Source of the DNA: an uncultured delta proteobacterium
Lineage (GTDB): Bacteria; Desulfobacterota; Desulfuromonadia; Geobacterales; DSM-12255
Assembly: GCA_963787125.1 (NCBI GenBank)
Contig: CAWBBV010000001.1
Location: 256,001-320,000 of the forward strand
Direction of reading: 5' to 3'
Length of the DNA stretch: 64,000 nt
A program made the translations under genes and the position numbers. Positions 1 to 12,226 of the stretch are shown here, piece after piece (position 1 is the stretch's first letter; each line of letters opens with the position of its first letter). The notes under the pieces were generated by a model. The model saw only the letters and a program-made list of their open reading frames with translations, was not told where the DNA came from and searched no databases.

Positions 1-1
1 G

Positions 2-934
2 CTTATAGGTGCCTGTCATATGCACTTTGATCGAGCTCTGATAGGACGCGCCGAAAGAGAACCGGTCAGTTGGCTCCCACATCAAGCCAAGGTTATAGGA
101 AGGAGAAAAGTCATCGCGCATTTTTATCTCTGCCGTGGCAATTCTGTCATAAGGGTTGATTCCGCCGCCGAACCATGGTGGGCGAAAAAACAGCTCCGAA
201 ATGAGCGGAATCTCCATATCCTTGGTCGCATCCCCAAGGACTCTGGTCATACTCACCATGTCGCTGGGGGAGCGCATCTCGAGATTGGCCCCCATGGCTG
301 TCTGCCCGAGTCCGACCGACATCCCGACAGAAAAAGTCTTGTTCACCTGATAACTGACTGCGGGTGCGGCATAGATCAGGTGCTGCTGATAAACACCCTG
401 ACCGCCGAACCGTGCCGGGTCATTATCTTTACCATGAACCAGTCCAACGGCAAACGGCGCGTAATTACCAATGGCGAAAGTCCATTTTGAGCACGGTTCA
501 CGGTGGGAAAGACCAAGCGATGGCGCCACCAGAAAATCAAGCTCGCCCAAAAACGGGATATACATCCGGCCACTGGTATTGGTCCCTTGAGTTCCTGCCA
601 CCGGATCCTTTTTATCTTCCCAGCCGGCAAAACCTTTGAAGTCCGGATCTGCTTCAAATTTGGAGGTCTTCTTGACAATCGGAATGGTGATCCCCTGGCT
701 GAAATAATCGCCATCGCCCAGAAGCGAAAGTCCGGCCGGGTTGTAATGAATCGACATGAGCCCGGGTGGTGAGGCGGTGACGTTGTTGGCTAAAGAGATG
801 GCTCTGGTGTCGATGGCCAACTGCTCGTGGAAAGCTGCCCGGGAGAGTGCCGGCAGGAGAAAAGTCAAGAAGATTGCCACAAAAATCGGGGTAAAGATCG
901 GCAGCACAGACTCTGCCTGCCGATCTGCCGCCAT
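2..934 (-). CDS. OmpP1/FadL-family outer-membrane beta-barrel, FilD-like (partial, runs off the window; absent from the ORF track)
   Basis: Hand translation from ATG at 934 stays open to the window edge: MAADRQAESVLPIFTPIFVAIFLTFLLPALSRA-AFHEQLAIDTRAISLANNVTASPPGLMSIHYNPAGL...FSPSYNLGLMWEPTDRFSFGASYQSSIKVHMTGTYK. It has a signal peptide, the FadL/OmpP1 'NPAGL' hatch motif and amphipathic strands. Confidence 0.85.
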   Translation of the reverse strand, partial: MAADRQAESVLPIFTPIFVAIFLTFLLPALSRAAFHEQLAIDTRAISLANNVTASPPGLMSIHYNPAGLSLLGDGDYFSQGITIPIVKKTSKFEADPDFKGFAGWEDKKDPVAGTQGTNTSGRMYIPFLGELDFLVAPSLGLSHREPCSKWTFAIGNYAPFAVGLVHGKDNDPARFGGQGVYQQHLIYAAPAVSYQVNKTFSVGMSVGLGQTAMGANLEMRSPSDMVSMTRVLGDATKDMEIPLISELFFRPPWFGGGINPYDRIATAEIKMRDDFSPSYNLGLMWEPTDRFSFGASYQSSIKVHMTGTYK

Positions 935-989
935 ACATAAAGGGGGCTTTGGTGAGTGTAAGGCGCTCGACCATAAAATTTTGAGCGCA

Positions 990-2120
990 CTAAAATTCAA
1001 ACGGCACCCTGATGGAGAAGGAGAAGTCCGGATCATTGCTGGTGAGGCCAATGCCGAGTTTGAGTGAAACTGTCCGGTTGGGAGTTACCCGCCAGCCGGT
1101 ACCGATGTAGAAGGTTGATGATAGTGAACTGCCGCTGCTGTAGGATGCAGCGTTACTGAAGCGGTACTCGTTGCTGAAGGCGTAGTTTGCCTGGACGCTC
1201 ATATTGAGCGATGCCTTGTAGGAAAGGGCATAGCCGAACCCCATGGCCAGGCCGATACTGCTGCCAGGCTCAACAGTCGTGAGGTTCCGGCCATCGCGCC
1301 AGTTCTGGTTCAGGTCGCGGGCCGCAAAGTTATAGTTATAGCTTAAATTGCCAAAGGCAATCAGCGGATCCATGGTTTTGCTGAGGGAAACGCCGGCGTT
1401 TACCCCGTAAAAGCCGGAACCGGTGGGAAGAGTTTCTTCAGTGTTAATCTCATAGGGGCTGGTGCCAAACGGCAGGGTCAGCCCGCCACTGAAGATCAGT
1501 GCCGGCATATCGCCACCGGCCTTGATCGGCTGCATCTGCATCCCTACAGAGACATCGCCGAAATCGCTGGCATCCTGAGCCCTGTCAGTCCCGACCCGGT
1601 TGTACTTGTAGGCAAACGGGATGCTGGCGTTGACCGAGAAATTATCCTTCAAGCCATATTCAACATAGAACTGGTTGGTAAGGTTGTGATTACTTCTTTT
1701 CTCCACAATAGCGGTATCTTTAATGACGTCGCCGGAAAAATAGGAATAGTTGAAACCGTACTCAATACTGGTTGATCCTTTCTTTAACAGGGTGTACTCC
1801 CGGCCGGCAGCGGAAAGAATCTCCTCCGCCTTCTTCCCTTTCTCCTCCTCGGACACCTCCAACCGCTTGCGCGCACCAGTCTCTTTGCGCAACTTGTCCA
1901 CCTGAAGTTTCAGCTCTTTCAGCTGCTCTTCTATGCCGATCTTGGCGTCGCCCGGCTTAGCTTCAGCCTCGTCGCCGTCAGTATCCTCTGCCGCAGCTGG
2001 CGGCGCTGCGGGAGCAACCGGCTTGGCAGCTTCAGCCTTCTTCTCCGCGCTATGACATTCAGAAAAAGTTACCGTCAGCAGCAGCAGTAATAAACTTGTC
2101 TTAAATACTAAATTCTTCAC
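990..2120 (-). CDS. Outer-membrane transporter, FilC/FapF-like (N-terminal coiled coil plus beta-barrel)
   Basis: Signal peptide, Ala/Pro linker, heptad segment IEEQLKELKLQVDKLRKE, barrel with GDVSVG and PTGSGFY motifs, terminal Phe (RVPFEF). Adjacent to a C39 peptidase. Confidence 0.8.
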   Translation of the reverse strand: MKNLVFKTSLLLLLLTVTFSECHSAEKKAEAAKPVAPAAPPAAAEDTDGDEAEAKPGDAKIGIEEQLKELKLQVDKLRKETGARKRLEVSEEEKGKKAEEILSAAGREYTLLKKGSTSIEYGFNYSYFSGDVIKDTAIVEKRSNHNLTNQFYVEYGLKDNFSVNASIPFAYKYNRVGTDRAQDASDFGDVSVGMQMQPIKAGGDMPALIFSGGLTLPFGTSPYEINTEETLPTGSGFYGVNAGVSLSKTMDPLIAFGNLSYNYNFAARDLNQNWRDGRNLTTVEPGSSIGLAMGFGYALSYKASLNMSVQANYAFSNEYRFSNAASYSSGSSLSSTFYIGTGWRVTPNRTVSLKLGIGLTSNDPDFSFSIRVPFEF

Positions 2121-2137
2121 CGGTGACTCCTCGCACG

Positions 2138-2884
2138 CTACTTGCCATAGTACTGATACTTGCCAGGGAAATCGTTAATCAGCCGCTCTTCCTTATTGGT
2201 CAGAGCCGGCTGATGATCGAAAATTATCTGCCGCGCCTGGTCTTCATCGATATAACGAAGATCCTCGTCCTTCAGTCTGAGGGCCTTCAGCACGTTGCCA
2301 TCAGCTGCCGGCGAGACCACAAAAATCACGTTCTCGTACCACATCGCCTTGAACTCATCCAGGGTGAAGCTGATATCACCCCGCCACGGATCGGTCAAAA
2401 AAACATGCCCTTTATGAATCCCCTTCAGGACGGCAAAGTGGCGGTAATCAAAGATCTTGATCGGGACGAGACACGGCTTGCCCAGAGTTGTCAGGTCTTC
2501 AATCTCGGCCTTGTAACCGACACCTTCATATCCGAGAGCATTGACGAATTTTTTCATATCAAGGAGCGAGAACGCGCGCAGTTTGTTGATCTGTTCACTA
2601 TCGCCATGTTCCAGCAGCCCCTGGATAACCTGCTTTTCCGTCAGTTTCTCTCCCAGATAAAAATTGAGAAGGGTCGCCAGAGCAGCCGAACCACAGCTGT
2701 AGTCAAACGCCTGCTTGATGAAATGATCCCCCTCGATATCGGAAAAGGGCCGCACATTAACGCGGATTCTCCCCTGCTGACCCGTGCCGACAGTCAGGTT
2801 CATCTCTGCCGGGGGTTGCGGCTTGAGCGGGTGAAACCCGGCAACTAGAGAAATGATTATTACAAAAGCGGCTATGACTACCAT
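2138..2884 (-). CDS. Stand-alone C39-family cysteine peptidase, FilB/FapD-like
   Basis: KQAFDYSCGSAALATLL (catalytic Cys), YRHFAVL (His), VFLTDPWRG (Asp). Hydrophobic N-terminus and no ABC domain. Confidence 0.9.
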   Translation of the reverse strand: MVVIAAFVIIISLVAGFHPLKPQPPAEMNLTVGTGQQGRIRVNVRPFSDIEGDHFIKQAFDYSCGSAALATLLNFYLGEKLTEKQVIQGLLEHGDSEQINKLRAFSLLDMKKFVNALGYEGVGYKAEIEDLTTLGKPCLVPIKIFDYRHFAVLKGIHKGHVFLTDPWRGDISFTLDEFKAMWYENVIFVVSPAADGNVLKALRLKDEDLRYIDEDQARQIIFDHQPALTNKEERLINDFPGKYQYYGK

Positions 2885-2908
2885 GAATAGACCTGCCTCC
2901 GAACGCTG

Positions 2909-3916
2909 TTAGTGGCCGGCGAGCCTGATCCAGCCGTTGACGCCGAGCATCAAATGAGAGACGGCGAGTGAGCCGCAAGTGCCGCCACCGGTCAACTGTT
3001 TGTTGTCGGCGATCTTTACATCAGCGTTAAACGAAGTCATCGAGACCCCCAGTGCGCCTTTAGCAAAAGTACTGCTGTCGTTTGTGTTTATCGTGTTGTT
3101 GCGGGAATCGTCGCTGCCAAGACCGATATGCACGTAAGAGACACCTGGACCGAATACTGAAAAGGGGACGGACTGCAGAGTGGTTGCGTCGGAAGCATTT
3201 GTAGCCACATTAATGGTAAGAGGGCCGACTATTTTGAGCGTTGTGATGCTCAATCCGGAGAGACCAAAGTAACCGGCCAGGTCACTCACTCCGTCTTTGT
3301 TTCCTTTTGAGTTGCCCCAGGAGAGAGCATCCAGTTTCAACGACTCGATATTAAGGTCTAAATCCGTGCCTATCCCTGAAGCTTTACTATCTTTTACGGT
3401 AAGGATGTCCACCCTGCTGGCTTTGTTGAAGAGCAACTTCAACCCACCCAGATAAACTGACCCCAGGTTCTGTTCGAGCCGCTTTGAACTGCCGAGTCCC
3501 ACATCAAACTGCAGCTGCTCCATATCTATCGCCAGAGAGCCCATGGAGATCCGCACATAGGTTGTGCCTTCGCCATGGCCGCTTGCATTGGCAGCCCCTT
3601 CAGTGACCACATCAATGGCCATTTTAGTTATTTCCTGGGTCAGCGGATCTTTTGCCGAATAGATTTTTGTATTTTTAGCCGAGAAATTTTTCAGCCCTAC
3701 CCAGCCTTCCGTTGTGCCGCTACCAACCCCCAAACCATCATCATCGCGCCAGTAGGCGGTTTCCAGGGTGATGTCAAAGGTCAAATCCACATCTATCGAC
3801 ATCCCGGCCTGGCCGGTAACCTTGTGTAGGCCGTTATCAGGGATGATATTTTTCGCAAATACTGAAAAAGGTATCAGTAAAATAACAGTGGCTATGGAAA
3901 ATGTTTTTTTCATCAT
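2909..3916 (-). CDS. DUF6160/FilA-like secreted beta-rich protein (paralogue of 6831-8309)
   Basis: Signal peptide, then IPDNGLHKVTGQAGMSIDVD. Shares TTYVRIxxGSL, LSWGN, SYVHIGLG and C-terminal GVNGWIRLAGH blocks with the 492-aa paralogue. Confidence 0.75.
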   Translation of the reverse strand: MMKKTFSIATVILLIPFSVFAKNIIPDNGLHKVTGQAGMSIDVDLTFDITLETAYWRDDDGLGVGSGTTEGWVGLKNFSAKNTKIYSAKDPLTQEITKMAIDVVTEGAANASGHGEGTTYVRISMGSLAIDMEQLQFDVGLGSSKRLEQNLGSVYLGGLKLLFNKASRVDILTVKDSKASGIGTDLDLNIESLKLDALSWGNSKGNKDGVSDLAGYFGLSGLSITTLKIVGPLTINVATNASDATTLQSVPFSVFGPGVSYVHIGLGSDDSRNNTINTNDSSTFAKGALGVSMTSFNADVKIADNKQLTGGGTCGSLAVSHLMLGVNGWIRLAGH

Positions 3917-3950
3917 TCAGCCCTCCTGCACTTCACTTACAGAAAACAGA

Positions 3951-5567
3951 TCACTCCTTCAGCTCAACGTCATAGCGGACAAAACCGTTCCCTTCAGCAC
4001 TGATCGCCAGAGTGTGCAGATGGGTGGCATCATCAAAAACAAGACTGGAACCTTTGACAACCGATACCAGCCGCTTGGTCATCTCTTTGCCGTCAACGAC
4101 TACCACCCACTGGCCACCGGCTAAGGCAACATAGGCAAAATGGTGTGAATCGGGAGAGAACGCCGGTGCAGCAACACCGTCGAATACCGGACCTTCCTTG
4201 CCGTTAATAACCACCCGCCACTTGCCGTCTTTTTGTGCCATGTAGGCTAAAGATTTAAAATCAGGGCTGTAGCGCGGTGGAGTCAGTGCATCGTAAAACG
4301 CCCCCTCTACACCGTCCGTGACTACCAGCCATTTGCCGTTTTTTTGCGCCGAGTATGTCAGGTGAGCCGAATCCATGGTAAACTGCGGAGTGGTCACCAT
4401 GTCGTAATTAACTCCATCCTTGCCGTCCAATACCACCAACCATTTCCCCTGCTTTTGGGCTGCGTAGGCCAGGTGTGCCGAGTCCATGCTGTAGATGGGA
4501 ATAGTAACAACGTCATAGCGTGCCCCTTCCTTGCCATCACTTACCATGAAACCCTTGTCGCCCAGTTTCGCTGAATAGGTCGTATGTTTCGAATCAGGGC
4601 TGTAGGAAAGGATGCCTACCTGGTCGTAAAGCGGGCCTTCTTTGCCATCCATAACCATCAGGTTTTTCGAGTCTTTAACAGCCAGGAAGGCGACATGATT
4701 GGAGTCAAGGCTGAAAGACGGAATAGCCACGTCATCGTAAAGCGCACTCTCTTTGCCATCAATAACCATTAGTGACTTGCCGCCTTTCTTGGCGGCATAA
4801 GCAAAATGCTGTGAATCAAGGCTGAAATTGCAGACACCGACGTTGTCATAGACTGGCTGCTCCTTGTCGTTTTCAACAAAAAACATTTTTCCTGCCTGCT
4901 TGACGCCATAGACGAGCCGCACAGAGTCCAGGCTGTAAACCGGCGCAGATATTGCGTCATAGGTTTTACCCTTTTTACCATCCACCACCAGCGCCATCTT
5001 TTTGTTGATTACAGCGACATACACCAGGTGCTTTGAATCGGGGCTGAACATCGGTGTTGACTGATCCTGGATAATCCCGTCATAAGATTTCCCTTTTTTG
5101 TTGTCCACTACCACAGAGCGTTTTTCACCCTTTTTGACCACATAGGCCAGGCGCTTTGAGTCCGGACTGAACAGCGGCGTAGAAACACCATCGAAGCCGT
5201 TACCATCTGCACCGTCAAGGCTTACCCGCCACTGATCACCTTTTTTTGAGCTATGGACAACATGCTTGCCATCGGGACTGAACAGCGGCGTCCCCTTACC
5301 GACGGCTTCAAGAGTCGGCGACACTTTCCCCTCGGTTATGACAACAACACCTTTTTCATTACGTGCCATGAAGGCGACCCGGCTCGAGTTCTGGTTGACT
5401 TGCAGGGACGGGATAAACATGTCCCACTCCTCGGAAAAAGGAATCAGTGGCGTGATCTTTTCGGCAAAGGTTTTTGCCTCCTTGGCACAAGCTAAAGAGC
5501 CCATAAACACCAACGCCGTTAAAGCAGTTACTATGAAAATGAAATGGCATTTATTTCTCGTTCTCAT
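3951..5567 (-). CDS. Secreted PD40/TolB-like beta-propeller repeat protein
   Basis: Signal peptide, then about 12 tandem ~37-aa repeats of the form FSPDSxHLAYxAxKxGKWxVVxDGKEGxxYDxVxxP. Confidence 0.85.
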   Translation of the reverse strand: MRTRNKCHFIFIVTALTALVFMGSLACAKEAKTFAEKITPLIPFSEEWDMFIPSLQVNQNSSRVAFMARNEKGVVVITEGKVSPTLEAVGKGTPLFSPDGKHVVHSSKKGDQWRVSLDGADGNGFDGVSTPLFSPDSKRLAYVVKKGEKRSVVVDNKKGKSYDGIIQDQSTPMFSPDSKHLVYVAVINKKMALVVDGKKGKTYDAISAPVYSLDSVRLVYGVKQAGKMFFVENDKEQPVYDNVGVCNFSLDSQHFAYAAKKGGKSLMVIDGKESALYDDVAIPSFSLDSNHVAFLAVKDSKNLMVMDGKEGPLYDQVGILSYSPDSKHTTYSAKLGDKGFMVSDGKEGARYDVVTIPIYSMDSAHLAYAAQKQGKWLVVLDGKDGVNYDMVTTPQFTMDSAHLTYSAQKNGKWLVVTDGVEGAFYDALTPPRYSPDFKSLAYMAQKDGKWRVVINGKEGPVFDGVAAPAFSPDSHHFAYVALAGGQWVVVVDGKEMTKRLVSVVKGSSLVFDDATHLHTLAISAEGNGFVRYDVELKE

Positions 5568-5654
5568 GGTCAGCCCCTTGATTCAATTGATATTTTTTAA
5601 CCGTGCCTGCAATAAATAAGTAACGATTCAAGCTTATTTAAAACATTGTATTAC

Positions 5655-5698
5655 ACAATAATGCATCCTAACATGCGCGTCAAGGTTAAATTCATTGC
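5655..5698 (-). promoter_or_regulatory. Putative sigma70 promoter with an upstream element shared with 9240-9286
   Basis: Minus strand TTGACG-N17-TATTGT, preceded by GCAATGAATTTAACC. Confidence 0.5.
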
Positions 5699-5840
5699 GG
5701 GAGTTTAATTTACACAGGGCTTGCAGCTGAAATTGTTTATGACGCGGCGGGCTATGTATCGGACGCTTGAATGATCGTCAACGCATTTAAACTGGCACTG
5801 GTTGCCACCATGGAACTGCCGGGGCTAAATAATGGTCGTT

Positions 5841-6689
5841 TTATGGCGTCAGGCGCAACTGGAGGCGATGAACATTGATGCCGTCAATGGCCATGGGGCC
5901 AAAACTCGTCGGACCGAAGGCTACATTCTCTACTCTTAGTGAGCCTTGCATCGGCAGGTTTATATATGTTGACGTCACATCGTTCAGTTCGGCGCCAACT
6001 ACAATTGAGGCAGGGTTCGGTTTGTCCGCCGGGTGTTCGCCGATGTGGAAGTTGCCGGTCATTGCCCAACTGGCCGGATCTTCCGGAGCGCCGCTGGCGC
6101 TGCCAAAGAGATGAACGCCACTTAGTGCCAGCGAGTTGGAGCTGTTATAGGCATATTTTAAAACGCCGATGTCCAGGCGCGTCGTGTAGTCAAATTCAAT
6201 TCCTGAACCAGCAATTGGTGCTGAGATTCGCAGGGTGGAAGGGCCTTCGGTCATCGGGCCGATATGGAGGCTGCCCAGCGACTGATCGGCAAATTTAAGC
6301 TCGCTGACGTTATAGTGACGGGGGTAGGTCTTGCTGGAGTCGACGATTGTCAGGGAAGTTCTGCCGGCGGCATCAGTGCTGACATCATAGGTGATTGGAC
6401 TGCTGGTAATAAAGCCATCAGATGTTTTCATGGAAAAAGGGTTGCCGGCGCCATCGTCAATTGTCACGCCGTTGAATTCGAGCCATTTTTTAGTGGGACT
6501 AGTGTCTGCAATTCTGAAACTGTCCATGGCTACCTGGACGGCAAGATCCATATCAATGCTGATTCCGGCCCGACCGGTAACAGTCGAGAGTTCGGTGTCG
6601 GCCAGGGTGCTCATGGCTGCCTCAATGTCGTTCGAAGCAACGAGACAGACGGCGACTATGATCGAGGCGACTGCACCAATACGTTTCAT
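5841..6689 (-). CDS. DUF6160/FilA-like secreted protein
   Basis: Signal peptide, then MSTLADTELSTVTGRAGISIDMD. Beta-rich G/S/T composition. Confidence 0.75.
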   Translation of the reverse strand: MKRIGAVASIIVAVCLVASNDIEAAMSTLADTELSTVTGRAGISIDMDLAVQVAMDSFRIADTSPTKKWLEFNGVTIDDGAGNPFSMKTSDGFITSSPITYDVSTDAAGRTSLTIVDSSKTYPRHYNVSELKFADQSLGSLHIGPMTEGPSTLRISAPIAGSGIEFDYTTRLDIGVLKYAYNSSNSLALSGVHLFGSASGAPEDPASWAMTGNFHIGEHPADKPNPASIVVGAELNDVTSTYINLPMQGSLRVENVAFGPTSFGPMAIDGINVHRLQLRLTP

Positions 6690-6752
6690 TGAACCCCCAC
6701 TCCGTGTATTTCTGTTACTGCAACGGCAAGTTTTTATCGATGGATCTAAGGG

Positions 6753-6782
6753 AAAAAGGGGGGAGGCGCCTGCCTCCTCCCC
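6753..6782 (-). terminator. Intrinsic terminator downstream of the 492-aa FilA-like gene
   Basis: Minus strand GGGAGGAGGC-AGGC-GCCTCCCCCC followed by TTTTT. Confidence 0.65.
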
Positions 6783-6830
6783 TTGATTGCATTAAAGAGG
6801 GCCGATAGTCAGACCCGGTTAAATTCCCGT

Positions 6831-8309
6831 TTAGTGGGCACCAATGTTAACCCAGCCGTTAATACCAACTTTCAGATTGGACATCGACATTGTGCCGTAA
6901 GTACCGGCTGAGTTCGTGTCACCCAAATAAGCGCTTTTGCCAAGCAGGTCTTTGTTGTTGGAAACAGCTATGTCAGCATACATCGAACCGATACCGAAAA
7001 CGAATCCACCAGGGCCGACCAGCGCCGAACCGGACTCGGATTTGCCGGTACCGATACCGATATGAACGAAGCTAGGGCCGACTGCGGTAGCAACTGAATT
7101 GTAGAGTGAGTAGTAGTAATTTGACAGGGCTGTTTCAGTAGCAGCCTTGGCAGGATTACCGAGATATGCACCAGCGGCGGCAGCATAAGTAGCTGCGTCT
7201 GCATCAGAAATTGCTTTAGCTGCGACATACGCAGGATCTAAAACGTTGCCACCTGCAGTGAATAGTGCATTATTTGTTGCCAGCAATGAAGCAGCGTAAG
7301 TTGCGCCTTTAGTCGAAGCATCAGCTGCAAAAGGGGCGATAGTAGCCATATTGGTGGTAAAAGCTGTCGCCGCGGTAGCTACTCCTAAAGCGCTGGTGTT
7401 TACTGTTCCGACCTGGATGGAGATCGGGCCGACCATGGTCATGTCCGTGATGGCCAGATTTTTATAGCCGACATAACCTGCTGTGGTAGTAGCCGCTGCG
7501 CTTGCTGCCGATCCGGACGGACCGGTTACTGTCCCGGCCTTATTGCCCCATGACATTGATGCGGCATTAAGCTTGTCAATCTTTACATCAAGATCAAAAA
7601 CTACGCCGGAACCAGCTGCGTTAACTGCTTTCTGGCTGAGCGAATAGATATCAACTTTGCTGTTACCGTTCACTTGAACATTAAGCCCGCCAATATGGAC
7701 ATCGCCCAGCTCCTGGGAAAGATTTGCCAGAGTTGGGGCGGCTTTACCGGCTGACTGACCAAGAGCAACGGTAAAGTCGATATTTTTTGCAGCGATTTCC
7801 AGAGAGCCGAGGCCGATACGGACGTAGGTAGTACCGGCTGCTTTATTGTCTACAGCTGCTGCGGCAGTTGCAACGTCAATGGTCAGCGGATGCACAGCCA
7901 GCTTATAAGTAGGGAGCAGAGCGGCTTGAGCTGCTAAATCTGCGACGGTGTATTTACCTTTTGATGCGACTACAAAGGCCATTGCAGCAGCTGGTTTGTC
8001 TGCAACAGCGGCGTCTACATACGCTTGTGCCAGGGTTGCGAGGACGACGTCAGCCAGCATTTCCGGGCGAAGTCTGACGGTCATGTTGTCGATGGTGAAG
8101 TTTTTCATGCCGATCCAGTTTGTGTTGGCACCGTCATAATTTCCCCAGGCCATGGTGTCGGCAGTAACATCAACACGCACGTCCATGTCGATGGAGACGC
8201 CGGACTGGCCGGTTACTTTGCCCATCTCACTGTCGGAGATGGTTGACTTGGCGTATGCTGCAAACGGGATCATGGTTGCCATTGCGGCGATTGCTAATAC
8301 TTTTTTCAT
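6831..8309 (-). CDS. DUF6160/FilA-like protein, probable major subunit, with two Ala-rich insertions
   Basis: Signal peptide ending AYA, then KSTISDSEMGKVTGQSGVSIDMD. Strong RBS (AAGGAG), its own terminator, C-terminal GINGWVNIGAH. Confidence 0.8.
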   Translation of the reverse strand: MKKVLAIAAMATMIPFAAYAKSTISDSEMGKVTGQSGVSIDMDVRVDVTADTMAWGNYDGANTNWIGMKNFTIDNMTVRLRPEMLADVVLATLAQAYVDAAVADKPAAAMAFVVASKGKYTVADLAAQAALLPTYKLAVHPLTIDVATAAAAVDNKAAGTTYVRIGLGSLEIAAKNIDFTVALGQSAGKAAPTLANLSQELGDVHIGGLNVQVNGNSKVDIYSLSQKAVNAAGSGVVFDLDVKIDKLNAASMSWGNKAGTVTGPSGSAASAAATTTAGYVGYKNLAITDMTMVGPISIQVGTVNTSALGVATAATAFTTNMATIAPFAADASTKGATYAASLLATNNALFTAGGNVLDPAYVAAKAISDADAATYAAAAGAYLGNPAKAATETALSNYYYSLYNSVATAVGPSFVHIGIGTGKSESGSALVGPGGFVFGIGSMYADIAVSNNKDLLGKSAYLGDTNSAGTYGTMSMSNLKVGINGWVNIGAH

Positions 8310-8535
8310 TGTGCGTTCACTCCTTGTGGTTGTTTTGCCTGCAGTCAGCTGACTATCCGTACAATACGAATTTTTAAGCTTGCCGCCCCCCCGGTTGCCC
8401 CGGGCTTGCTTGTTCTGCCGGCTTGTTAATTAGTTTTTTGCAATACTCTTTATGCGTCCCTGCTAAAACCTCGCTACCTTTTAACCCGCCTGCTGATTCT
8501 CCATCACCCCCCTTAAAGAATTTATCCATATTCGG

Positions 8536-9195
8536 CTAGATCGGAGTCGCTGTCCCCATGTTGACCCAGGCTCCCTTGCGTGACGCTGACAACTCCAGCG
8601 TAAATGACAACTCAGTGTGATTGAATTGATAATTTTTAGTGCCAAGAGCAGCGCGGGAAAGGTCACTGCCGCCGACAACACCGCTAAAACTCTGAAAATT
8701 CGCTGCTACCGTCCCGGTAACATCCTTGGAGCCGATGGTAAAGCTCTGCAGCTCGCGAGTAGCTGGATTGTCGATAGTTGCCGGATTAAACACGGCCTTA
8801 ATGAAGAAACCGTTCAAGACGAGATCGTTTGCCGCTGTACCGAGCTTTACTGTTGTCCAGTTCTGGTCCCACCCCTTGCTGCCCCCGCCGGTGTTGTCCC
8901 AGTAACCCATCTTCATGGAATCAATCTCTGTATATGTGGCGGCGCGGATACCGGTGAAATCAGCCAGGGCGACACCATTAACCATGGTGAAACTGGAAAA
9001 CCCCTGGGCGACAACTGCAGAGAGCTCGGCATCGTTCATGGCCGTCATTCCCGCCCAGCCGGAGACAGGTGCAAGGAGGCAAAGAACAGTCGCAACAGCA
9101 AGGAGCGCTTGCAGCAGTCGCGGTAAAAGCGCTTTCAACGACCTGCTCCTGCCATCCTTTTTTTGAGTTCCTTTTCTAATATTCATTGCCGTCAA
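8536..9195 (-). CDS. Secreted protein with a DUF6160-like leader (start uncertain)
   Basis: Signal peptide ending GWA, then GMTAMNDAELSAVVAQGFSSF. Beta-rich mature part. Confidence 0.65.
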   Translation of the reverse strand: MTAMNIRKGTQKKDGRSRSLKALLPRLLQALLAVATVLCLLAPVSGWAGMTAMNDAELSAVVAQGFSSFTMVNGVALADFTGIRAATYTEIDSMKMGYWDNTGGGSKGWDQNWTTVKLGTAANDLVLNGFFIKAVFNPATIDNPATRELQSFTIGSKDVTGTVAANFQSFSGVVGGSDLSRAALGTKNYQFNHTELSFTLELSASRKGAWVNMGTATPI

Positions 9196-9239
9196 CTCTC
9201 TTTATCGAATTACATTTTTGTAGAACATCGTTTAATCGA

Positions 9240-9286
9240 CTTATATTCGGTAATTCTCCTCAACGTCAAGGTGAAATTTGCATTGC
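9240..9286 (-). promoter_or_regulatory. Putative sigma70 promoter of the leftward Fil-like operon
   Basis: Minus strand TTGACG-N18-TATAAG, preceded by GCAATGCAAATTTCACC (near copy of 5678-5698). Confidence 0.45.
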
Positions 9287-9456
9287 TACAAAAAGTTTTT
9301 TATAGTAAACGAATAGTGGCGATTAAATCCCAAGTAAAAATATCAACAAAGCGTTATAAATGGCTGAAAAATAAGGTATTACATTTATATAACTATGTTT
9401 AATTTATTTTAATTTTAATATTAGCTGTTCATATTTAGCACAATATTTATATTTTC

Positions 9457-9566
9457 ACTGGTAAAACCTTGTTTGCTAAGGCCTCTGTTTTGTGTACCAG
9501 ATTCCATTTCTGGGTACCAGATTTTGAAATTTTGTTTTTTTTGTGTACCAGATTTTATTTTTGGGT
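9457..9566. promoter_or_regulatory. Repeated FadR/GntR-like operator elements
   Basis: TG(T/G)GTACCAGATT at 9491, 9511 and 9542, plus ACTGGTAAAACC at 9457, all just upstream of the FadR-like gene. Confidence 0.55.
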
Positions 9567-9648
9567 CGAAACAACGGAAGTTTTAAGCGGAGAACAGCAA
9601 CAATCCGGATATTGGGCTTTCCGGATTAGCCTTTCGCGGAGGGAGCAG

Positions 9649-10359
9649 ATGAAGAAAGCACACATCATTATTGAAAATCAGCTCGTTGACTCTATTTTGA
9701 CAGGAGCCTCTCTGCCCGGGGATCTCTTGCCTGGAGATCGGGAACTGGCCTTGAAGTACGGAGTAGCCAGACCGGTAGTCCGCGAAGCGTTGCAGAACAT
9801 GGCTCATTCCGGCTGGATCTCAATAAATACTCGCAAAGCAAGTTTGGTTAACAATTACTGGAGCGACGGCACCCTCGACATCCTTGCCTCTATTGCCAAG
9901 AGCAGCGAGAAATTCCCCATCGAATTGATCGCTGACCTCCTTGAAGTAAGGGCTGAACTGGCACCGGACTATGCGGCCAAAGCGATAGAAAAGGACAGCG
10001 CCCAGGTCATCGCCTGTCTGGCAAAAGCCCGCAAGCTGGGAACAAGCGGCGCAGCCTTTGCCAAGTTTGATTGGGAACTCCACCGGATGCTGTCAATTCT
10101 CTCAGGGAACAGAATCTACCCGCTGATTCTCAACAGTTTTGCCAATCTCTATTTCAAGATGCGCGGTCAGTTTTTCTCGGCAGAAGATTACCGGGAAATA
10201 TCAAGGGTCTATTATCAGAAGCTGTTAAAGGCGGCAATCGATGAAAATATCCAGGACGCGCGCCAGATAACCCGCACAGCCATGCTGCAAAGAGTTCACC
10301 TTTTCCGCCGCCAGATAGAGGCAAGGAAAAATGAGCCCCGGGAAGAAGACACTCCATGA
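9649..10359 (+). CDS. fadR: FadR-like GntR-family regulator (fatty-acid metabolism regulator type)
   Basis: ATG at 9649 after GGAGGGAG. wHTH LPGDRELALKYGVARPVVREAL followed by GWISI...VNNYWSDGTLDIL, matching the E. coli FadR VNNFW pattern. FadR-type C-terminus (FDWELH, GNRIYPLILNSF). Confidence 0.75.
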   Translation: MKKAHIIIENQLVDSILTGASLPGDLLPGDRELALKYGVARPVVREALQNMAHSGWISINTRKASLVNNYWSDGTLDILASIAKSSEKFPIELIADLLEVRAELAPDYAAKAIEKDSAQVIACLAKARKLGTSGAAFAKFDWELHRMLSILSGNRIYPLILNSFANLYFKMRGQFFSAEDYREISRVYYQKLLKAAIDENIQDARQITRTAMLQRVHLFRRQIEARKNEPREEDTP

Positions 10360-11726
10360 AAACCTTCTTAACAGCTGCCATAACTTTATTGCTCGTTACG
10401 CTTGCCATCTCTGCCCCGGTTTTGGCCGCATACGAGCCTGGGAGCATAACACTGCTGCCGACCGCCGGCTTCTCCAGTTTTGATAAAAGTTCCAAACTGA
10501 AAAACAGCCCGACCGTCAACCTGAAAGCAGATTACGGCCTCTCAAAACTGGATATTGGCAATCTCGGCATCGAAGGGGCAATCAGCGGCGGCAAGATTCG
10601 GTCAACAGACGGAGAGCAGAACGCCGATACCTATCTCTTCAGAGTCGGCCCGTTCCTATCCCTGGAATCTTTTGAGGGGATCACGCCGATTTTGGCCGCC
10701 GGTTTCGGCCTGTTTACTACCAGGCAAACGATAAATTCCGTTACCGGAACAAACCCCTACATCTCCTTCAGCGCGGGCGCCAGTTATCAGCTTGCCAAGA
10801 GCATCATGCTCAGAGGCGATGTCAGCCGCTTGATGTCGCTGGACACCAATGCTATCAAGGGGCTATCTTTTACCGTCAGCCTTGGTTATAGCTTTGACAC
10901 CCCGCCGCCGGTCTTTGTCCCTGTCCACCCGGAAAACTGCGCTGACAAAGCGGCTGCCGCAGCAGTGGCTAAACAGGCAAAGGCGCCTGCAGCAGTACCG
11001 GTAGAACTGCTGCAGGCGCCGCAGGCGGGTACGGTTGAGGTTACTTCAGCGGCCCGCGATAATAAAACTGAAGAATCCATAGAAACACCTGTTGCTGCAC
11101 CTGTTGCTGCACCTGTTGCTGCACCTGTTGCTGCACCTGTTGCTGCACCTGTTGCTGCACCTGTTGCTGCACCTGTTGCTGCACCTGTTGCTGCACCTGT
11201 TGCTGCACCTGTTGCTGCTCCTGTTGCTGCTCCTGTTGCTGCTCCTGTTGCTGCTCCTGTTGCTGCTCCTGTTGCTGCTCCTGCTCTACCTCTACCTCTA
11301 CCTTTATCCGCAGTCACGGCACCGCCGCCTTCATACCCGGCGGCTCCTGTTCCCCCCGTTATTATCAGCGGCTTTGCCTTCAACTCATACGACCTGCCTC
11401 CGGGCAGTTTCAAGAAGCTCAAAAAGGTAGGCAAGTTGGCACGCCGCTACCCCGGCATCACCATCCTGATTGATGCTGTGCCTGTGAGCAAAGTGCCAAA
11501 GCCGAAAACCAACCGGCGCTTTGCTGTGCTGCGGCTGCAGACAGTCAAAAATTACCTGGTGAAATATGAGCAGATCGCTCCGGAAAGGATTATCAGTACC
11601 GGTGAGGACATCTCCGTGTTGCAACCTGTTAACAGGGGCGATCCGCGCAGTGAGGATACCCGGCGGACCGTAGTGATCAGGTTTGCGCAGGAACAGCCGC
11701 CGGTGAGCACTGAGGAGGACGAATGA
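10356..11726 (+). CDS. OmpA-like protein: OM beta-barrel, Pro/Ala linker and degenerate OmpA C-terminal domain
   Basis: Signal peptide, amphipathic strands ending VSLGYSF, (PVAA)16 linker, then FAFNSYDL...VKNYLV...IAPERIISTG...RRTVVI. Confidence 0.75.
   Translation: MKTFLTAAITLLLVTLAISAPVLAAYEPGSITLLPTAGFSSFDKSSKLKNSPTVNLKADYGLSKLDIGNLGIEGAISGGKIRSTDGEQNADTYLFRVGPFLSLESFEGITPILAAGFGLFTTRQTINSVTGTNPYISFSAGASYQLAKSIMLRGDVSRLMSLDTNAIKGLSFTVSLGYSFDTPPPVFVPVHPENCADKAAAAAVAKQAKAPAAVPVELLQAPQAGTVEVTSAARDNKTEESIETPVAAPVAAPVAAPVAAPVAAPVAAPVAAPVAAPVAAPVAAPVAAPVAAPVAAPVAAPVAAPVAAPALPLPLPLSAVTAPPPSYPAAPVPPVIISGFAFNSYDLPPGSFKKLKKVGKLARRYPGITILIDAVPVSKVPKPKTNRRFAVLRLQTVKNYLVKYEQIAPERIISTGEDISVLQPVNRGDPRSEDTRRTVVIRFAQEQPPVSTEEDE
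11088..11279 (+). repeat. Coding 12-bp tandem repeat (VNTR), 16 units
   Basis: 10 x CCTGTTGCTGCA followed by 6 x CCTGTTGCTGCT. A short (CTACCT)3 run follows a few bases downstream. Confidence 0.97.
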
Positions 11727-12226
11727 AATTTCTCAGCAGACTCGATCGCTGGTTTGAAGTTGGTGAAGGGTGCGCCCTGATCATCATCCTTTTTGCCATG
11801 ATCTGCATCGCCTTTTTACAGGTGCTGCTGCGCAACTTCTTTCACACTGCTCTCCCCTGGGGTGATGGCCTCACCCGCGCCCTGGTGCTCTGGGCTGGCT
11901 TTGTCGGTGCTTCACTGGCTGTGCGTCAGGGACGCTTCCTCAGTATCGACGTGCTGAGCCGACGCCTCGGGGCGGCCTGGCAGCGGCGCACCAGGCTGCT
12001 GATCTACCTGTATGCAGCGCTCGTCAGCTTTTTCCTCGGCTGGGGCGGGGTTACCTTTGTCCGTAGCGAGCTGGCCGCCATGACCATGACCTCTATCGGC
12101 CTGCCGAACTGGATCATTACCAGCATTATCCCGGCGACGTTTTTCCTGCTCTGCTTCCGTTTTTCCATGAAAACCGCTGCCCTGCTCCTGGGGGGGGAAC
12201 TGGAGAAACATGAATGGGAACGCTGA
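11723..12226 (+). CDS. dctQ: TRAP transporter small permease
   Basis: Four TM segments with QVLLRNFF...LPWGD.LTR.LVLW.GFVGASLA motif. Confidence 0.9.
   Translation: MKFLSRLDRWFEVGEGCALIIILFAMICIAFLQVLLRNFFHTALPWGDGLTRALVLWAGFVGASLAVRQGRFLSIDVLSRRLGAAWQRRTRLLIYLYAALVSFFLGWGGVTFVRSELAAMTMTSIGLPNWIITSIIPATFFLLCFRFSMKTAALLLGGELEKHEWER

Follow-up and report, generated by a model that had tools for sequence, protein, structure and literature searches.

A distant relative of Fil/Fap secretion loci in a Geobacterales genome and the double-glycine-type leader shared by its candidate cargo proteins

Organization of the locus

The DNA considered here is a stretch of 64,000 nucleotides (the window) from an uncultured delta proteobacterium of the order Geobacterales (assembly GCA_963787125.1, contig CAWBBV010000001.1; G000:C1:256001-320000 in our coordinates), read together with the 12 kb to its left (L002). 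At the left end of the window, between positions 2 and 9195, lie eight open reading frames (ORFs), all on the minus strand, where a sequence-only reading of the same DNA had described eight co-oriented genes for secreted proteins, a peptidase and outer-membrane barrels. They follow one another in the order A1-A2-A3-propeller-A4-FilB-FilC-FilD and encode a distant relative of the Fil and Fap outer-membrane secretion systems. Behind their Sec signals the secreted A proteins share a leader of the double-glycine type, a candidate substrate for the C39 peptidase encoded beside them.

Four of the eight genes encode candidate cargo proteins or subunits. A1 (8536-9195) is a protein of 219 amino acids (aa), of which about 155 would form the mature part, and has a Sec signal followed by the leader MNDAELSAVVAQ-GF. 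A2 (6831-8309) has 492 aa and the leader ISDSEMGKVTGQ-SG, A3 (5841-6689) has 282 aa and the leader LADTELSTVTGR-AG, and A4 (2909-3916) has 335 aa and the leader IPDNGLHKVTGQ-AG. Between A3 and A4 lies the gene for a secreted, repetitive beta-propeller of 538 aa (3951-5567). Downstream of A4 come a stand-alone C39 cysteine peptidase resembling FilB and FapD (2138-2884, 248 aa), a coiled-coil outer-membrane barrel resembling FilC and FapF (990-2120, 376 aa) and the 5' part of a barrel of the FadL/OmpP1/TodX family, FilD (2-1051), which runs off the left edge of the window. The complete filD ORF has up to 626 codons (L002:11171-13051, which is G000:C1:255171-257051), extends 829 bases beyond the window and overlaps the end of filC with its start. 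A fifth gene for a protein of the A type lies apart from the others, 7 kb to the left of the window and on the plus strand (L002:4371-4922, which is G000:C1:248371-248922). Its product has the leader ISDEALGSVTGQ-AG and a mature part of about 125 residues.

Relationship to Fil and Fap proteins

The Pfam gathering scores are 27 bits for DUF6160 (PF19657), 22 for Peptidase_C39 and 29.7 for Toluene_X (PF03349). A2, A3 and A4 pass the DUF6160 score with 37.5, 54.5 (the best family match) and 32.1 bits, and the fifth protein reaches 43.6 bits. A1 stays below it (15.1 bits, E 0.028) and joins the group through a profile-profile alignment of the leader only, so that of the four DUF6160/FilA-like proteins proposed in the sequence-only reading, three hold as family members and one by its leader alone. 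The peptidase passes the Peptidase_C39 score (58.1 bits), and FilD exceeds that of Toluene_X both as the partial protein in the window (74.9 bits) and as the complete one (160.2 bits). The coiled-coil barrel matches Phenol_MetA_deg at 34.5 bits and the propeller matches PD40 at 45.5 bits.

The NCBIfam models place these proteins more closely. The peptidase matches FilB (E 8.7e-57, 192.6 bits) ahead of FapD (2.6e-31, 108.7 bits), the coiled-coil barrel matches FilC (1.3e-63, 215.6 bits) ahead of FapF (2.1e-25, 89.4 bits), and the FadL-like barrel matches FilD (8.6e-101, 337.8 bits). The FilA model (NF050077) matches A4 (1.3e-6, 28.1 bits) and A3 (2.8e-4, 20.4 bits), in both cases at its N-terminal profile positions 9-129 only, and has no match to A1 or A2. 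For the FilB-, FilC- and FilD-like proteins, A3 and A4 alike, the best family is thus the corresponding Fil model, with FapD and FapF in second place, and the models occur in the order FilA, FilB, FilC, FilD that had been recognized from the sequence. Among all proteins of the cluster, no match was found to the FapA, FapB, FapC or FapE families. The curated cut-offs are 220 bits for FilA, 475 for FilB, 630 for FilC, 970 for FilD, 700 for FapF and 330 for FapD. Since every Fil score falls far below them, the cluster is to be regarded as a distant Fil/Fap relative, and its proteins as homologues rather than strict members of the NCBI families; as judged from these profiles, it is a real, distant variant of this kind of system. 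In the Atlas, A4 lies nearest, with scores of 0.95-0.96, to clusters that bear the names "putative pilus system protein FilA" and DUF6160. Only seven distant homologues of A4, none of them named, were found; A3 has 47 homologues besides the window's own protein, and the 346 homologues of FilC are all hypothetical or named "transporter". The nearest named homologues of the cluster proteins are Geomonas and Geobacteraceae records.

Structural comparisons support the pairing of a C39 peptidase with a FapF-type barrel that had been read as the core of Fap export. The peptidase has an N-terminal hydrophobic segment and lacks an ATP-binding cassette (ABC) transporter domain. Among solved structures it aligns to double-glycine protease domains, to 6mpz at 1.3e-8 and likewise to that of PCAT1, and its residues Q58, C64, H149 and D165 line up in 6mpz and 7n87 with the conserved Q, C, H and D, which we take to be the catalytic residues. 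FilC consists, in order, of a signal peptide, an acidic Pro/Ala-rich linker, a coiled coil, a conserved pre-barrel segment and the barrel, and its residues 186-376 match the solved FapF barrel (5o65, 5o67, 5o68) at E 3e-16. The propeller has about 13 repeats of about 37 aa. For its AlphaFold 2 (AF2) model (confidence, pLDDT, 83), Foldseek ranks first 2ymu, a "highly repetitive propeller" (5e-16), and next proteins with two seven-bladed propellers. With a signal peptide that ends in SLAC, the propeller may be a lipoprotein.

A shared leader on the secreted proteins

A1-A4 align well at the N-terminus only. Behind the Sec signal, after an AxA-type signal-peptidase site, comes a short leader segment with the consensus L(-12)xxxE(-8)L(-7)xxV(-4)TG(-2)Q, followed by A-G. 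The positions were counted in 38 A3-type homologues, with the Q/R residue taken as -1. Six of them hold without exception in all 38: L/M/I/V at -12, L/M/I at -7, a hydrophobic residue at -4, G/A at -2, A/S/G at +1 and G at +2. The acidic position -10 is D/E in 36/38, position -8 is E/D/Q in 32/38, and position -1 is Q/R in 32/38 (Q in 21 and R in 11, with T in another 3).

The published consensus of double-glycine leaders is Leu(-12)-X3-Glu(-8)-Leu(-7) with a hydrophobic residue at -4 and Gly at -2 (PMC6363468). The cargo leaders agree with it at -12, -8, -7, -4 and -2. They depart from it at -1, where Gly, Ala or Ser is expected and Q or R is found instead; since a small-Gly pair follows at +1 and +2, cleavage could take place behind either the Q or that Gly. 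AF2 models the leader of A3 as a short helix of low confidence (residues 31-36), and confident beta structure starts at I43, directly after the invariant G42.

The motif is a rare one within the genome. A strict regular expression for the leader gave eight matches in 26,459 six-frame ORFs (3.5 million aa, the whole genome): four are A1-A4, and the other four lie deep within unrelated ORFs. Outside the genome it is widespread. A profile built from 15 leader regions, searched against 1.84 billion representative sequences, matched 1,481 clusters (50% identity) at E <= 0.001, 316 of them at E <= 1e-10, and in nearly all of the 150 representatives listed the match begins at the N-terminus or no more than about 20 residues from it. 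The motif is present in 144 of the 149 best new representatives, with a median start at residue 24, in a sample that is biased because the profile itself contains the motif; Q stands at -1 in 142 of these 144, and G at +2 in 143. Members of this leader family range from 76 to 770 aa. From the 149 new representatives, 67 with lengths of 200-360 aa were compared with the FilA model, and none reaches its cut-off. Many of the representatives P0177-P0325, of up to 770 aa, match the leader profile in two to four separate stretches, which suggests internal repeats of the post-leader region, with its D-x-D-G ... W motif.

When the profile of A1 was aligned with the A3-type profile (hhalign), the leader region alone matched, over 34 columns, with a probability of 89.6 and an E value of 1.9e-6. 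Because A1 shares the leader and no more with the other cargo, the leader would be their common address. DUF6160, we conclude, is essentially a Sec signal, a double-glycine-type leader and a first strand placed on differing mature domains. The leader also supplies the predicted periplasmic C39 peptidase with an explicit candidate substrate, which we consider the most useful new point of this analysis.

Distribution and synteny

A FilC-alignment scan of species-representative genomes yielded 36 loci, and in 36/36 the next gene after FilC, on its strand, is FilD. Seven loci were captured in full, with DUF6160, FilB, FilC and FilD, and all seven (7/7) also have the propeller: L005 from a Geomonas metagenome-assembled genome, L032-L035 from Desulfoluna (two cultured species included), L037 from Syntrophaceae and L038, labelled Bacteriovoracaceae. 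A1 homologues occur in the same systems at L032-L035 and L038. Because the propeller recurs at related loci it can be counted as part of the system, its generic fold saying nothing specific about function. Another 14 of the 36 loci are too short upstream of FilC to judge; the remaining 15 are taken up below. The loci L038 and L039 (titled "Bacteriovoracaceae" and "Pseudomonadota") seem to fall within the phylum grouping of the window genome, and their labels may be imprecise. In Desulfoluna a gene for a large LVIVD-repeat protein and one for a small outer-membrane beta-barrel lie just downstream of the propeller (L032:15728-17998 and L034:15307-17640), and the system may have additional accessory components there.

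An even sample of the phylum, with 401 genomes from 255 genera and the window's own genome included, gives a measure of how the genes travel together. FilC (E <= 1e-30) was found in 18/401 genomes and 13/255 genera. Of the FilC-positive genomes, 17/18 have FilB and 16/18 have DUF6160 (E <= 0.001). An independent search for DUF6160 found it in 18 genomes, so that 15 of the 401 genomes have both DUF6160 and FilC, three and three have only one of them, and 380 have neither; no statistic is attached to this table because related genomes are not independent. Propeller homologues (E <= 1e-20) are present in 9/17 of the other FilC-positive genomes, several of them on the same contig as FilB and FilC.

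Each positive genome has one to seven DUF6160 matches, often in tandem ORFs of 150-200 residues directly upstream of FilB, so four or five paralogues are normal in the phylum. The description of the locus as "expanded" is therefore apt with respect to the presumably single FilA of Acinetobacter, and not with respect to its relatives. Closer to home the system is scarce. None of the seven same-genus genomes (0/7) and none of 15 others from the same family (0/15) carries it (0/22, some of these genomes being incomplete), and among 18 genomes of the same order there was one weak match (2.5e-11). With so patchy a distribution, any role would be strain-specific. Base composition gives no sign of horizontal transfer at the locus, with a GC content of 0.513 against 0.508 for the genome.

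Flanking genes and possible regulation

On the left, filD overlaps the start of a gene for an LCM-type S-adenosylmethionine-dependent methyltransferase, which is followed, in the same orientation, by genes for a membrane diguanylate cyclase, which has GGEEF and an RxxD site, and for an alpha/beta hydrolase (the three together at L002:8238-11174, minus strand) and by three more genes. None of these left-flank genes recurs in the 36 related loci. The sequence-only reading had recommended looking there for FilE- or FilF-like genes. What the left flank provided was the methyltransferase, the diguanylate cyclase and the fifth DUF6160 gene; no match to FilF was found among the flanking proteins, and the model NF050081 is silent in the window's own genome and also in 14 control genomes. 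NF050082, tried as a FilE/FilF model, is an unrelated ATPase family. Farther left, two ORFs at L002:1-1576 (plus strand) do not obviously look like housekeeping genes and may be part of a mobile or phage-like region.

The fifth DUF6160 gene lies immediately downstream of an ORF (L002:2494-3939) that was read from its sequence as an NtrC-type sigma-54 activator, an enhancer-binding response regulator. Ahead of the gene, at L002:4316-4331, is TGGCACTTTAGTTGCG, the sole one-mismatch match in L002 to what we take to be the sigma-54 -24/-12 consensus. No such pattern was found upstream of A1-A4 in the minus-strand intergenic regions, and the overall count does not exceed that in shuffled sequences.

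Within the cluster, a GC-rich hairpin with a U-run lies in the gap between A2 and A3 (6752-6784, minus strand). Found by a consensus scan and folding, it resembles an intrinsic terminator or attenuator and might shift expression in favour of A1 and A2 over the genes that follow. The terminator and sigma-70 scans gave site counts at the shuffled expectation, and the hairpin is suggestive by position only; the remaining intergenic folds in the cluster are unremarkable. A search of Rfam (E <= 1; window positions 1-12000 and L002) found no riboswitch or known RNA at the cluster.

On the other side, the divergent neighbour of the cluster is a gene for a FadR-like GntR regulator (9469-10359, plus strand; FadR 152.6 bits against a cut-off of 189, with a FadR_C domain). 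One weak FadR-like match was seen near the Desulfoluna locus L034. Next comes an OmpA-like gene (10356-11726, plus strand), in which a 12-base tandem repeat (11086-11283; 16.5 copies, 99% identity) encodes a (PVAA)n linker between the N-terminal beta-barrel domain and the C-terminal OmpA domain. This coding repeat is also the source of the only Rfam matches, which are spurious isrG ones at 10949-11219.

A proposed two-step secretion pathway

How might these parts work together? The best explanation overall is a two-step Fil/Fap-type system for secretion and assembly at the outer membrane, to which we would give a probability of about 0.6. The processing-and-export pathway within it is, taken by itself, quite probable. 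The five paralogous cargo proteins (A1-A4 and the product of the fifth gene) would leave the cytoplasm through Sec, and signal peptidase I would cleave them at the AxA-type sites. This cut would expose an amphipathic leader of 15-17 residues that is hydrophobic at -15, -12, -7 and -4 and acidic at -8, has G/A at -2 and Q/R at -1, and leads into [A/S/G]-G and the first beta-strand. In the periplasm, the FilB-like C39 peptidase would bind the leader helix and cleave the leader off, at the TGQ-AG junction or beside it. The processed, export-competent cargo would then cross the outer membrane through FilC, which by analogy with FapF may be a trimer with a periplasmic coiled coil, working together with its obligate neighbour FilD. 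Once outside, the acidic, Cys-poor, all-beta subunits would most likely associate by their edges and so build up a fibre on the surface or a layer of matrix. The secreted propeller would be a recurrent periplasmic or outer-membrane accessory, perhaps a chaperone or docking factor.

The proposed steps of leader processing by C39 and of export through FilC and FilD are supported by the precedent of FapD and FapF in Pseudomonas. There, according to the accessible parts of a 2017 study, the periplasmic FapD and its catalytic Cys are needed for secretion of FapC through FapF, whose barrel is trimeric and 12-stranded and has its coiled coil in the periplasm (PMC5557850). The same text describes the Fap proteins as being without canonical C39 sequences, and the target of FapD as unclear. 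A 2026 preprint, in the part available, describes FapD only as serving precursor processing (10.64898/2026.10.01.755530).

The Fap system thus shares with the present one a periplasmic C39 peptidase, a FapF-like barrel preceded by a coiled coil, and the passage first through Sec and then through an outer-membrane barrel. It differs in its subunits and its parts: here the Fap subunit and chaperone families are lacking and the subunits are not N/Q-rich repeat amyloids, whereas an obligate FadL-like barrel and a propeller are added, and the cargo has a clear double-glycine-type leader.

Acinetobacter Fil (NF050077-NF050081; FilA, FilB, FilC, FilD and FilF) is closer: its subunit of the DUF6160 type, its stand-alone C39 peptidase and its two barrels, the coiled-coil FapF-like one and the FadL-like one, come in the same order, which for Acinetobacter we take from the model names. 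On the other hand, the present locus has five subunit paralogues instead of what we assume to be a single FilA, and a propeller without a Fil counterpart among the NCBIfam matches, and its host is an anaerobe from another phylum. The accessible text of one report describes FilF of A. baumannii as a surface lipoprotein that depends on the type II secretion system (PMC12802150), so FilF may not be part of the core machinery.

With the AMS/PCAT peptidases (ComA, LahT, PCAT1) the FilB-like enzyme has the C39 fold in common, and its presumptive substrates have the leader register L(-12), E(-8), L(-7), V(-4), G(-2). Unlike them, the enzyme is free-standing and predicted to be periplasmic, rather than fused to an ABC exporter at the cytoplasmic face, and the cargo consists of Sec-exported proteins of 125-457 aa, not small peptides, with Q/R at -1 in place of G/A/S. 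A reading of the locus as one for a bacteriocin or another peptide that is made by ribosomes and modified after translation (RiPP) is ruled out by the Sec signals, the large mature domains and the lack of an ABC exporter. In the type V pili of Bacteroidota, blocked lipoprotein subunits lose an N-terminal piece to gingipain-type proteases before they polymerize by strand exchange or pairing. The likeness to these is a hypothetical analogy of protease-triggered assembly only, and no relation in sequence or fold was found.

Several observations weigh against the two-step system as proposed. All Fil and Fap scores lie far below their cut-offs, the Fil scores at 9-41% of the curated values. With Q or R at -1 the cut site is uncertain, and the leader could remain uncleaved and serve as a signal for export or for a chaperone. 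The cargo itself raises two more points, since the fold of A3 has no significant solved homologue and the five mature domains, of 125-457 aa, differ greatly in both length and sequence, a spread that mixed cargo would explain at least as well as a single fibre. Finally, 15 loci for which over 5 kb upstream of FilC is available (L008, L011 and 13 others, labelled Smithella, Syntrophaceae or Deltaproteobacteria) have no adjoining FilB or DUF6160. In the two of these that were inspected, genes for B12-radical-SAM proteins and a metallophosphoesterase lie upstream of FilC, with a PilZ gene in one. In two such genomes, G120 and G355, FilB and DUF6160 are found about 29 kb away or on another contig, so there the system is split, not absent. 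The Smithella-type neighbourhood has two to four B12-binding radical-SAM genes, a metallophosphoesterase gene and sometimes one for a PilZ protein at about 4-9.5 kb upstream of FilC.

Fibre, mixed cargo or amyloid?

What do the exported proteins become? The mature subunits are acidic (isoelectric points of 4.9-5.7) and rich in G, S, T and A, with 19% Ala in the mature part of A2. Four of them have no Cys and A4 has one. Inspection of the sequences found no CXXCH motif and no type IV pilin N-terminus in the subunits, and the earlier characterization of the system as neither type IV nor cytochrome-based stands. The AF2 model of A3 is an all-beta meander (pLDDT 86.4). Compared with the PDB by Foldseek, this model gave no match at E <= 0.001, and a wide search with VIA-align had its best hits among outer-membrane barrels (CymA, TamA) at a Z score of 8.7, with a root-mean-square deviation of 7.5 over 170 residues. 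As the background of that search is 7-8, no outer-membrane protein fold is claimed for A3; since no significant solved homologue was found, the fold itself does not indicate a pilin either. A homotrimer prediction for mature A3 (residues 43-282, three copies) gave a score of 0.00 against a mark of 0.42 and counts neither way.

The main rival explanation keeps the machinery and the leader processing and changes the product. The leader would be a general sorting tag for beta-rich adhesins, matrix or surface-layer proteins and enzymes, and the cargo would be an assortment of surface proteins that do not polymerize. We think this unlikely on the whole, though several observations speak for it. The mature part of A1 is unrelated in sequence to those of A2-A4, so that the leader and the first strand are all that A1 shares with the other cargo; the mature proteins range from 125 to 457 aa and the members of the leader family from 76 to 770 aa, with one to seven per genome; and the fold of A3 has no pilin-like solved match. 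On the other hand, A1, A2 and A4 share, besides the N-terminal strand, a C-terminal G-W-[VI]-x-[MIL]-G motif (NGWVNIGAH in both A2 and A4). Conserved ends around a variable middle are a pattern of polymerizing subunits, and conserved first and last strands of this kind would suit polymerization edge to edge. The tandem small paralogues upstream of FilB in other genomes also speak against a mere assortment.

The link to a fibre rests on a report from Acinetobacter: in the accessible text of that source, FilA is cited as the subunit of the Fil pilus of Acinetobacter sp. Tol 5 (PMC11784438, where the primary paper is Hori 2011). That the product of the present locus is a true filament has, in our estimate, slightly less than an even chance. 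The hedged wording of the sequence-only reading, a filament or surface-protein export system with an extra propeller component, is about what the evidence allows.

A functional amyloid like that of Fap, exported unfolded through a FapF-like channel and then assembled into a cross-beta fibril, would account for the C39 peptidase and FapF-like barrel, which are the core of Fap export, and for the beta-rich subunits. It is nevertheless very unlikely. No protein of the cluster matches FapA, FapB, FapC or FapE; the mature proteins contain only 0-2.6% Q and 1.6-7.1% N, with no imperfect N/Q-rich repeats seen; and the AF2 model of A3 is a confident globular meander rather than a repeat solenoid. Fap, moreover, has no FadL-like partner and, as far as the accessible text goes, no canonical C39 leader (PMC5557850).

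Least probable of all is the notion that FilC and FilD are uptake channels for hydrophobic substrates that merely lie beside unrelated secreted proteins, with the FadR-like regulator pointing to fatty-acid metabolism: the Pfam names Toluene_X and Phenol_MetA_deg, the divergent regulator and the separation of FilC-FilD from FilB and DUF6160 in the Smithella-type loci would agree with it, but FilC is closer to the protein exporter FapF and conserves the coiled coil and pre-barrel segment, FilC genomes nearly always have FilB and DUF6160 as well (with the phylum-wide table as given above), the operon is tight, with filC and filD overlapping, and the FadR-like gene points the same way as another operon, downstream of it.

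Biological implications

In the literature searched, from which subscription-only papers fell outside, nothing was found on DUF6160, on the mechanism of Fil or on such a system in Desulfobacterota, in keeping with the earlier statement that it was not known to be characterized in this lineage; on FilA and FilF, the papers listed deal with vaccines and the type II secretion system only. A more far-reaching proposal can be put forward tentatively, as one that we hold to be rather less likely than not. DUF6160 would be a nested dual export signal and not a fold family, with a double-glycine-type leader that ends in T-G-Q-[A/S]-G placed directly behind a Sec signal peptide, and it would define a widespread two-step route across the outer membrane (at least 1,481 clusters), in which a C39 peptidase licenses diverse beta-rich cargo for a FapF-like and a FadL-like barrel. 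In this relative of metal-reducing bacteria it would yield a fibre outside the cell, distinct both from type IV pili and from cytochrome polymers, with its smallest subunit under sigma-54 control and its operon tied to a diguanylate cyclase.

Fil and Fap represent a poorly understood hybrid secretion route. The leader makes both the specificity of the peptidase and its role in export directly testable, and if the nested-signal reading is true, this would be the first explicit substrate motif for peptidases of the FapD/FilB class. The invariable pairing of FilC with FilD and the recurrent propeller provide a fuller parts list than the Fil or Fap models. In Geobacter-type organisms the identity of the extracellular filaments is disputed, and one more fibre, made of neither pilin nor cytochrome, could complicate filament preparations or add to them.

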